A DNA stretch of 47,421 bases. Source: an uncultured archaeon (GTDB taxonomy: Archaea > Nanohalarchaeota > Nanosalinia > Nanosalinales > Nanoanaerosalinaceae). The position numbers were made by a program, and so were the translations under genes. This document shows, in pieces, positions 20,859 to 21,319 of the stretch. The DNA lies in contig CAZWHR010000001.1 in assembly GCA_964633675.1 (NCBI GenBank), positions 1-47,421 of the forward strand, written 5' to 3'. Numbering within the stretch: the first letter of the stretch is position 1; every line of letters begins with the position of its first letter. Below the pieces are notes generated by a model, which saw only the letters and a list, made by a program, of their open reading frames with translations, was not told the origin of the DNA and searched no databases.

Positions 20859-20876
20859 AGCCCCGTCCGAGATTTG
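20859..20876 (-). repeat. orphan copy of the last 18 nt of tRNA-Thr (T-loop to discriminator)
   Basis: agccccgtccgagatttg at 20859-20876 is identical to 20976-20993. The sequence 5' of it on the minus strand has no T-stem partner. Confidence 0.85.
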
Positions 20877-20957
20877 GGCCTCTGTGCTTCTCTGGATTTG
20901 AGAAGCGCAGTCATGAAATCTTAGGGAAATAAAAGCACTCTTAACTGCCCAGAACTT

Positions 20958-20975
20958 CTAGAAAAGGAAATAGAG
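20958..20975 (-). terminator. T-rich tract directly after the tRNA-Thr 3' end
   Basis: The minus strand reads CTCTATTTCCTTTTCTAG immediately after the discriminator. Archaeal termination commonly uses oligo-T tracts. Confidence 0.3.
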
Positions 20976-21151
20976 AGCCCCGTCCGAGATTTGAACCCGG
21001 GACCTCGTCCTATCTGGTGCTTTTCAAGGTTTCTCGGTAGAGAAACCTGTATCGAAAATCCTGACGGATTTTCTCAAACCACCTTCTACTCGCTAGCGCT
21101 CGAGAAGGCGGTATTACCAAGGACGTGCTCTTCCAGCTGAGCTAACGGGGC
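20976..21151 (-). tRNA. tRNA-Thr(GGU) with a 103-nt intron at canonical position 37/38 (intron 21012-21114)
   Basis: Hand fold on the minus strand: GCCCCGT-TA-GCTC-AGCTGGAA-GAGC-A-CGTCC-TTGGTA[intron]A-GGACG-AGGTC-CCGGG-TTCAAAT-CTCGG-ACGGGGC-T. G18G19 and the T-loop are present. The U73 discriminator is as I recall for archaeal tRNA-Thr. No CCA is encoded. A TGGT/ACCA helix with a 3-nt GAT bulge sits at the 3' splice site (relaxed BHB). Confidence 0.8.
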
Positions 21152-21152
21152 T

Positions 21153-21274
21153 ATCAAGGGATCTCCTTAACTATACTGGTCTGTAATCGGGTAGCCTCCT
21201 CGTAGAGGAGGAATACCTGGTTGTTGCATTGTAGGGGCGTAACCCTACTGCTCTTCCAGCTGAGCTAACGGGGC
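21153..21274 (-). pseudogene. tRNA-Thr 5' fragment: 26 nt identical to the acceptor 5' strand plus D-arm of the downstream tRNA, then an aberrant hairpin, no T-arm and no 3' acceptor strand
   Basis: tgctcttccagctgagctaacggggc at 21249-21274 equals 21126-21151. It is followed (minus strand) by GTAGGG-TTACGC-CCCTAC and CCTCCTC-TACG-GAGGAGG hairpins. No ACGGGGC occurs before the next tRNA starts. Confidence 0.6.
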
Positions 21275-21306
21275 TTAGGCCAACACGGTTCAGTTGTCTT
21301 CGCAAC

Positions 21307-21319
21307 CTTTTTATTTATT
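21307..21319 (-). promoter_or_regulatory. A/T-rich TATA-like box upstream of the tRNA locus
   Basis: The minus strand reads AATAAATAAAAAG, 33-45 nt upstream of the first GCCCCGT (21274). The only A/T box before the complete tRNA (TATAGTTAA, 21167-21175) is too close (16-24 nt) to its mature 5' end. Confidence 0.3.

Follow-up and report, generated by a model that had tools for sequence, protein, structure and literature searches.

The tRNA-Thr(GGU) gene considered here is enclosed by copies of its own two ends, an orphan piece of the 5' end lying upstream and an orphan piece of the 3' end downstream, which raises the question of how such pieces arise and whether they are part of the gene. The gene is located in a window (the whole stretch of DNA that was analysed, 47,421 nucleotides in length) of a MAG of 1.26 Mb in 200 contigs, with a GC content of 48% (labelled G000, the related genomes being labelled in the same manner), the RFC protein of which is 63% identical to its counterpart in the Candidatus Nanohalarchaeota MAG QJJ-9. 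Beyond what the original prediction had described for this one locus, the pattern was found to be genome-wide, and the spacers between the copies and the gene are related to tRNA introns. The explanation that we prefer, with middling confidence, is that the locus is made of small insertion cassettes that are related to introns and restore whichever tRNA end they have interrupted.

When the sequence was re-read and subjected to a repeat search, the coordinates, hairpins and T-rich tract that had been assigned to the locus all proved correct (Table 1).

Table 1. Features of the tRNA-Thr(GGU) locus, in positions of the window and in minus-strand order.
Feature	Position	Strand	Basis or remark
TATA-like promoter box AATAAATAAAAAGG	21306..21319	-	read from sequence
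31-nt stretch between promoter box and outer 5' copy (a)		-	transcribed leader begins inside the stretch
Outer 5' copy (a), tRNA positions -1 to 26	21249..21275	-	27-nt exact direct repeat
Spacer (b), 97-nt S-type intron-related element	21152..21248	-	model R2 match 21185-21248
Spacer (b), hairpin 1, invariant (G)TTACGC loop, then AATGCAAC	21248-21231	-	
Spacer (b), hairpin 2	21211-21195	-	
Functional tRNA-Thr(GGU)	20976..21151	-	ARAGORN with introns allowed
tRNA-Thr exon 1	21151-21115	-	
tRNA-Thr canonical 103-nt intron	21114-21012	-	three hairpins, shared module types
tRNA-Thr exon 2	21011-20976	-	
Spacer (d), T-rich stretch, then E3 element	20877..20975	-	model R1 79 bits over 20928-20859
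Spacer (d), T-rich stretch	20975-20929	-	
Spacer (d), anti-T-loop box AGATTT	20921-20916	-	
Spacer (d), hairpin GCTTCTC/GAGAAGC (loop AAATCCA)	20906-20886	-	
Outer 3' copy (e), tRNA positions C56-U73	20859..20876	-	18-nt exact repeat

The 5' copy, described originally as 26 nt long, is exact and extends to 27 nt (21275-21249 = 21152-21126, the copies being 123 nt apart), and it contains the acceptor 5' strand together with the complete D-arm. The 3' copy is likewise exact over its 18 nt (20876-20859 = 20993-20976, 117 nt apart), and matches at 20 of 21 positions (95%) when extended. A search of the entire 1.26-Mb genome, as the original prediction had proposed, found each of the 26-nt and 18-nt strings exactly twice, in both cases only at the two sites of this locus, and none in the reversed-pattern controls. 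In ungapped matching, the two copies scored 26 (5') and 18 (3'); the best score of the controls, which were the wrong flank or 30 random 300-nt segments, was 9 or less for tRNA-Thr and 17 over all tRNAs. When long introns were permitted, ARAGORN confirmed the complete, intron-containing tRNA and returned this single tRNA-Thr(GGU) (20975-21151), in agreement with the earlier failure to assemble a second tRNA from the pieces. The BHB of its intron, at 37/38, has all four pairs of the central helix and an outer helix of 5 bp. The gene went undetected by ARAGORN under default settings and by Rfam at gathering and E-value thresholds. The neighboring genes are of a housekeeping nature (glycerol-3-phosphate dehydrogenase, FMN reductase, EamA transporter, M48 peptidase), and no integrase or cargo was found nearby or between the repeats, where the spacers span only 97 and 99 nt. 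Mis-assembly is argued against by the equal architecture seen in several independently assembled genomes.

Both spacers are structured. The RNA fold of the 97-nt spacer (b) had a z-score of -2.4, both of its hairpins being real, and its conserved 3' end reads GATCCCTTGATA; a match antisense to the D-arm (21179-21164) is weak, and non-significant at this locus alone. In spacer (d), the hairpin is followed by the junction ACAGAGGCC, and the AAATCT of copy (e) (20875-20870) is able to pair with the AGATTT box, although this 6-bp pairing, too, is non-significant at the tRNA-Thr locus alone, as is the pairing there of each copy with its own spacer. The intron of the gene itself contains a GAGAAAATC..GATTTTC hairpin.

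Copies of tRNA ends are found at 8 of the 26 bona fide tRNA genes of the MAG. The tRNA's own 5' end recurs within about 150 nt upstream of five (Thr, Met, Pro, Gln, Tyr) and its own 3' end within about 190 nt downstream of four (Thr, Ala, Leu, Lys), each at a score of at least 14, the wrong-flank and random controls for which were mostly 12 or less, with one outlier at 17; a weaker 3' copy lies behind tRNA-Gly. Many tRNA genes of the MAG also carry canonical introns of 90-190 nt. Among the related genomes, the full nested layout (5' copy, intact tRNA, 3' copy) was observed at the tRNA-Pro(UGG) and tRNA-Tyr of G001, the tRNA-Pro of G002, and the tRNA-Pro(CGG) and tRNA-Tyr of G006, the spacings of the first (-123 and +100) being close to those of the tRNA-Thr locus, and 3' copies alone occur at several other tRNAs. 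In this census, which favours loci fetched by similarity to the source genome and draws on incomplete MAGs, no copies were seen in the sampled loci of two genera of this family, g3 and g5, or in those of the other families covered. Even at one and the same tRNA, the distribution is patchy: at tRNA-Tyr the elements are present in G001 and absent in G000, and at tRNA-Thr they are present in G002 and absent in G006. Decayed copies were found as well, several distal copies being incomplete or mutated.

Across these loci, the repeats vary in length between 9 and 32 nt, with the tRNA termini as their anchor and without TIRs that are apparent by eye, and the spacers measure 43-190 nt. The junctions are recurrent, falling between positions 26 and 27 in three different tRNAs and between 55 and 56 in many. 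Arrangements at tRNA-Ala and tRNA-Tyr are common to several genera, with perfect distal copies and spacers of 50-85% identity. T-runs follow many of the distal 3' copies, and at the G001 tRNA-Tyr the T-run terminator lies within the repeat, ahead of the element. At the G001 tRNA-Pro, the spacer on the 5' side is homologous to that on the 3' side.

A few individual loci are to be noted here. On contig C63 (2122-2290, minus strand), tRNA-Gln(CUG) is preceded by a tandem pair of 5' units, in each of which a copy of positions 1-15 is joined by a GTGAAAT..ATTTCAC hairpin and by 9 nt complementary to the copy; units of this design also lie ahead of tRNA-Tyr on contig C81 and of tRNA-Pro on contig C61. 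Upstream of the G006 tRNA-Tyr (locus L049), a 55-nt 5' copy is followed by a run of N, which is either masked sequence or a scaffold gap. On contig C69 (4664-5030, 56% GC), tRNA-Met is followed by near-exact copies of its last 23 nt every ~125 nt, each with a similar spacer, which resembles the serial att repeats of a haloarchaeal-type contig; this contig may be contamination from the host. Lastly, contig C51 (1484-5186) packs 22 intron-less tRNA genes into 3.7 kb, unlike the remaining genome, and is probably a phage or foreign contig that was binned into the MAG.

The 3' spacer belongs to a family of elements, here called E3, in which a box antisense to the T-loop is followed by a conserved hairpin, a short junction and the copy of the tRNA end. 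The hairpin is CTTCTC..GAGAAG as at tRNA-Thr or, in other members, GAGAAAATC..GATTTTC; these hairpin types also occur inside the tRNA-Thr gene's own intron. A covariance model (R1) built from four members, for which, as a custom model, the E-values are rough, gave 28 matches; these fall in 5 of the family's 10 genomes and in three genera. Where a tRNA could be identified upstream of a match, the match mostly begins no more than about 50 nt from it and terminates in a 16-30-nt copy of that tRNA's 3' end, and the tRNAs involved include Ala, Arg, Glu, Phe, Ser, Thr, Gly, Lys and Pro; tandem arrays lie behind the G001 tRNA-Arg and the G002 tRNA-Thr(CGT). The pairs of the model were 88% paired, with covariation above that of shuffled and slid controls. 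Moreover, the box extends to match the T-stem of each tRNA's own sequence (permutation p = 0.0002, family-wide), and an antisense relation of the box to the tRNA end is supported for the 3' spacer family, whereas for the 5' spacer at tRNA-Thr it is weakly suggested. Of 20 E3 modules, 13 have their closest relative in their own genome but at another tRNA (80-97% identity), whereas modules at the same tRNA in different genomes share 50-75% identity. The tRNA-Thr module, for example, is 80% identical to that of tRNA-Ala(CGC) on contig C5, and the Thr, Gly and Lys modules of G002 are mutually 93-97% identical.

The 5' spacer represents another family, S, which at the tRNA-Thr locus begins directly after position 26 with the hairpin and its loop (Table 1); elsewhere, its first nucleotide adjoins position 73 where the tRNA is intact, and position 26 or 19 where a 5' fragment precedes it. 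In eleven members, all six pairs of the stem show compensatory changes and 98% of the cells are paired. The S model (R2), a custom model whose E-values are rough as well, matched 25 of the 41 genomes of the order. The same element serves as the canonical intron of tRNA-Thr(GGU) in G018 and G026, two complete genomes of the sister family, and, in G000 itself, as that of a tRNA-Gly (contig C48). Of the eight GGGTTC..GAACCC hairpins in the genome, six are in or beside tRNA genes. Spacer (b) is unrelated to the intron of the gene that it precedes. Since the modules recur in leaders, trailers and introns, all three are built from one module pool. On contig C32 (1928-1945, 2124-2219), an S-like hairpin (GTGGTTACGCCACAG, then ACAATAAGCC) was seen just downstream of a TnpB fragment, which hints at a link of the S hairpin to the right end of IS200/IS605; the S-like motif was absent from the other IS loci fetched.

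Comparison with the uninterrupted tRNA-Thr(GGU) of G004 bears on which of the copies is ancestral. The promoter box and leader of copy (a) aligned with those of G004 at a score of 9.5, against -5.1 +/- 3.5 for shuffled sequences, none of 1000 being as high; the sequence just before the inner tRNA gave no alignment to the G004 leader (p = 0.40). Owing to this homology, copy (a) is placed in the pre-tRNA leader, behind the promoter, as had been proposed. Because it keeps the native promoter, the outer copy is probably the original gene start, and the 123 bp made up of (b) and the inner positions 1-26 would be the insertion. The other 5' copies inspected also lie behind promoter-like TATA boxes with normal spacing. 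For the 3' side, the observations point in different directions: past the distal Thr copy of G002, the flank matches that of the copy-less G006 tRNA, but over 6 nt only; at the tRNA-His of G002, the most distal copy is the one that precedes the native S trailer; and at the tRNA-Thr locus the proximal 3' flank has a weak likeness to the G004 trailer (p = 0.06).

Taken as insertions, the structures of the locus could be accounted for as follows. One tRNA-Thr(GGU) gene would have received two small, gene-less, hairpin-rich insertions, each of which duplicated the tRNA end that it struck. The 5' unit of 123 bp would comprise the S element (b) and a regenerated copy of positions 1-26, placed between (a) and the remainder of the gene, and the 3' unit of 117 bp would comprise one copy of positions 56-73 and the E3 element (d). 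In general terms, an intron-type element would land at the end of a tRNA gene, and the event would duplicate 9-32 nt of that end. Since a substitute end would be brought along or generated with every unit, an intact tRNA would remain in all cases, with a dead end-fragment outside it. Since transcription would proceed from the old promoter, (a) and (b) would form a long leader, which RNase P presumably removes and in which the GCCCCGU could compete for the 3' acceptor strand, while (d) and (e), behind the T-rich tract, would be either trailer or untranscribed DNA. RNase P RNA had no match in G000, G001, G003 and G004, and the EndA (splicing endonuclease) domain had none in G000 and G001, both being found in other genomes of the family; these gaps are probably due to incompleteness or divergence, but are relevant to how such long leaders would be taken off.

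That the cassettes are DNA-level insertions, placed by a mobile or recombination process, is suggested by their recurrence and patchiness, by the tandem and decayed copies, and by the likeness of modules within a genome. Against it, the covariation of the stems and the invariant loop fit a function in host RNA as well, and gene conversion could look like spread inside one genome and might account for part of the evidence on either side. Neither the elements nor their cores were found as free or viral copies in the viral contigs scanned, which come from incomplete collections, and these contigs had no exact 18- or 26-nt match that would constitute the att core sought on viruses; the metagenome collection scanned held no strain variant of the locus, and a search for related loci with glycerol-3-phosphate dehydrogenase gave no match. 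To our knowledge, a duplication of variable length (9-32 nt) that is anchored at a terminus fits no known transposase. IS200/IS605 was rejected as a driver, as TnpA/TnpB are found in genus g1 and had no match in the cassette-rich g2. Reverse-transcriptase stop sites were also rejected as a source of the junctions, the positions being too scattered and lacking CCA, and K-turns, C/D boxes, anticodon arms and integron attC sites were a poor fit to the hairpins by eye. In its broadest form, the proposal is that this family of Nanohaloarchaeota hosts undescribed, miniature, gene-less cassettes, derived from tRNA introns and moving between tRNA ends, each with a hairpin and a target-antisense box, and each duplicating the end it strikes; this is possible, but is offered tentatively.

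Several other origins of the locus have to be weighed against insertion. It is conceivable, although unlikely in our assessment, that the leader and trailer structures work at the level of host RNA, where they would insulate folding or would signal processing or termination of the pre-tRNAs in a lineage with long structured introns. Such a function would explain why the S stem covaries around an invariant loop, why the E3 hairpin and the pairing of box to copy are maintained, why the Ala and Tyr arrangements cross genera with perfect distal copies in spite of the divergence of their spacers, and why promoters lie outside the 5' copies and T-runs behind many distal 3' copies. It does not sit well with elements that are missing from two genera of the family and variable between congeners, that exist in decayed and tandem copies, and that resemble each other more closely in one genome than at orthologous sites, nor with the G001 tRNA-Tyr, where termination would precede the element. 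The original prediction had considered scars of integrase-mediated recombination at a tRNA att site, i.e., large viruses or plasmids that integrated at tRNA attB sites and were later deleted to ~100 bp. The part of this idea that stands is that the copies mark recombination or insertion at tRNA ends; that they are plain integrase scars is distinctly improbable, since the spacers are two conserved structured families found at many tRNAs, and are thus not random debris. The repeats do run from inside the tRNA to its end as in attL/attR, tyrosine recombinases are present in these genomes, a classical integration with a 26-nt repeat occurs in the family, and such fragments are described in the model of Sugahara et al. 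2012 (PMC3293823) and in the survey of PMC9897764. Random deletion, however, would not yield the narrow range of spacer sizes or architectures that are conserved over different tRNAs and genera; in addition, the repeats have no integrase or cargo between them or in their vicinity, no modules are found in the arms of the genuine element, and the cores occurred on no viral contig scanned.

A decayed tandem duplicate, also put forward originally, would consist of exon 1 and intron debris upstream, and of intron debris and exon 2 downstream. The intron-type modules in both spacers are in line with this, as is the mutual homology of the two G001 tRNA-Pro spacers, but the junctions are too precise and recurrent, the flanks are not repeated, a repeated trailer was not found, and spacer (b) is unlike the gene's own intron; we therefore regard a duplicate as very improbable. 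Finally, the outer copies could be real exons, and the pieces extra non-canonical introns or parts of a split or multi-intron gene, seeing that splicing from copy to copy would restore the same tRNA, that the spacers are homologous to introns, and that a T-run follows the distal copy at several loci. This suggestion is hardly credible after inspection of the BHB: the motif was absent at every copy-to-copy register tested here and at 8 other loci, while the canonical intron scored as expected. Several distal copies are, moreover, incomplete or mutated, the spacers are not complementary, the (b)-(d) duplex being no better than shuffled sequences, and a split gene made of (a) and (e) would lack positions 27-55.

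Returning to small insertion cassettes, these can be compared with known mobile systems. Casposons generate duplications of 14-15 bp at tRNA 3' ends. With these elements the cassettes share the targeting of tRNA ends and the duplication of the target, and with MITEs or small palindromic repeats they share the small, non-coding, multicopy and hairpin-bearing nature; they differ from both in that TIRs are not apparent by eye, the duplication is of 9-32 nt and anchored at the terminus, and no matching transposase was found among the enzyme families searched. The attL/attR repeats left by archaeal viruses and plasmids in SSV- and pNOB8-type integration (Sugahara et al. 2012, PMC3293823; PMC9897764) similarly bound an insert with a repeat of the tRNA end and regenerate the intact tRNA, the displaced fragment keeping its native flank and repeated use of a tRNA leading to serial copies, but the inserts of the cassettes amount to only 43-190 bp, contain no integrase or cargo, and are conserved intron-related modules with a target-antisense box, in families that serve many tRNAs. 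Fragments of tRNA genes left by integrations of 9-23 kb are well documented (PMC9897764), and the closest published parallel is the heterogeneity of the Caldiarchaeum tRNA-Thr(GGU), in which a 5' fragment and an extra intron remain from a recombinase-bearing insert of 1.8 kb (PMC3293823). Mobile BHB introns of the Thermoproteales (PMC4090602) resemble the cassettes as related short structured sequences in various tRNAs and positions, and the S element is a true canonical intron in relatives; the cassettes are distinct in lying outside the functional gene, without a BHB, bounded by duplicated exon ends, and in not being spliced. Our literature searches returned no description of gene-less, intron-related cassettes of 50-190 bp with antisense boxes.

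A classical integrated element of ~9.8 kb was encountered at the tRNA-His of G002 (contig C2, ~145744-155646; locus L085, 5744-15646). A 348-aa tyrosine integrase adjoins the tRNA, and the element is bounded by a 26-nt direct repeat of the 3' end; its arms are without S or E3 modules, and it lies ahead of an older 43-nt mini-cassette and the S trailer.

The origin of archaeal tRNA introns and of split tRNAs is an open question, on which these loci bear in that the same short structured modules appear in three settings, namely canonical introns, leaders or trailers, and insertions with duplicated tRNA ends as their borders. Congeneric genomes can be seen to differ by gains and losses, and this makes for a testable system for the birth of introns and fragments at tRNA genes. 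If the broadest form of the proposal is true, the cassettes would be a missing link that connects non-canonical tRNA introns and split tRNA genes with integrative elements, and they may be one way in which archaea come by tRNA introns. On the practical side, default tRNA finders overlook such genes, and the partial copies are prone to mis-annotation. A related miscall was seen on contig C5 (3379-3543; locus L066), where a tRNA-Ala(CGC) with G3:U70 was called Leu(UAA) or Pyl by ARAGORN, because its long intron shifts the anticodon call.
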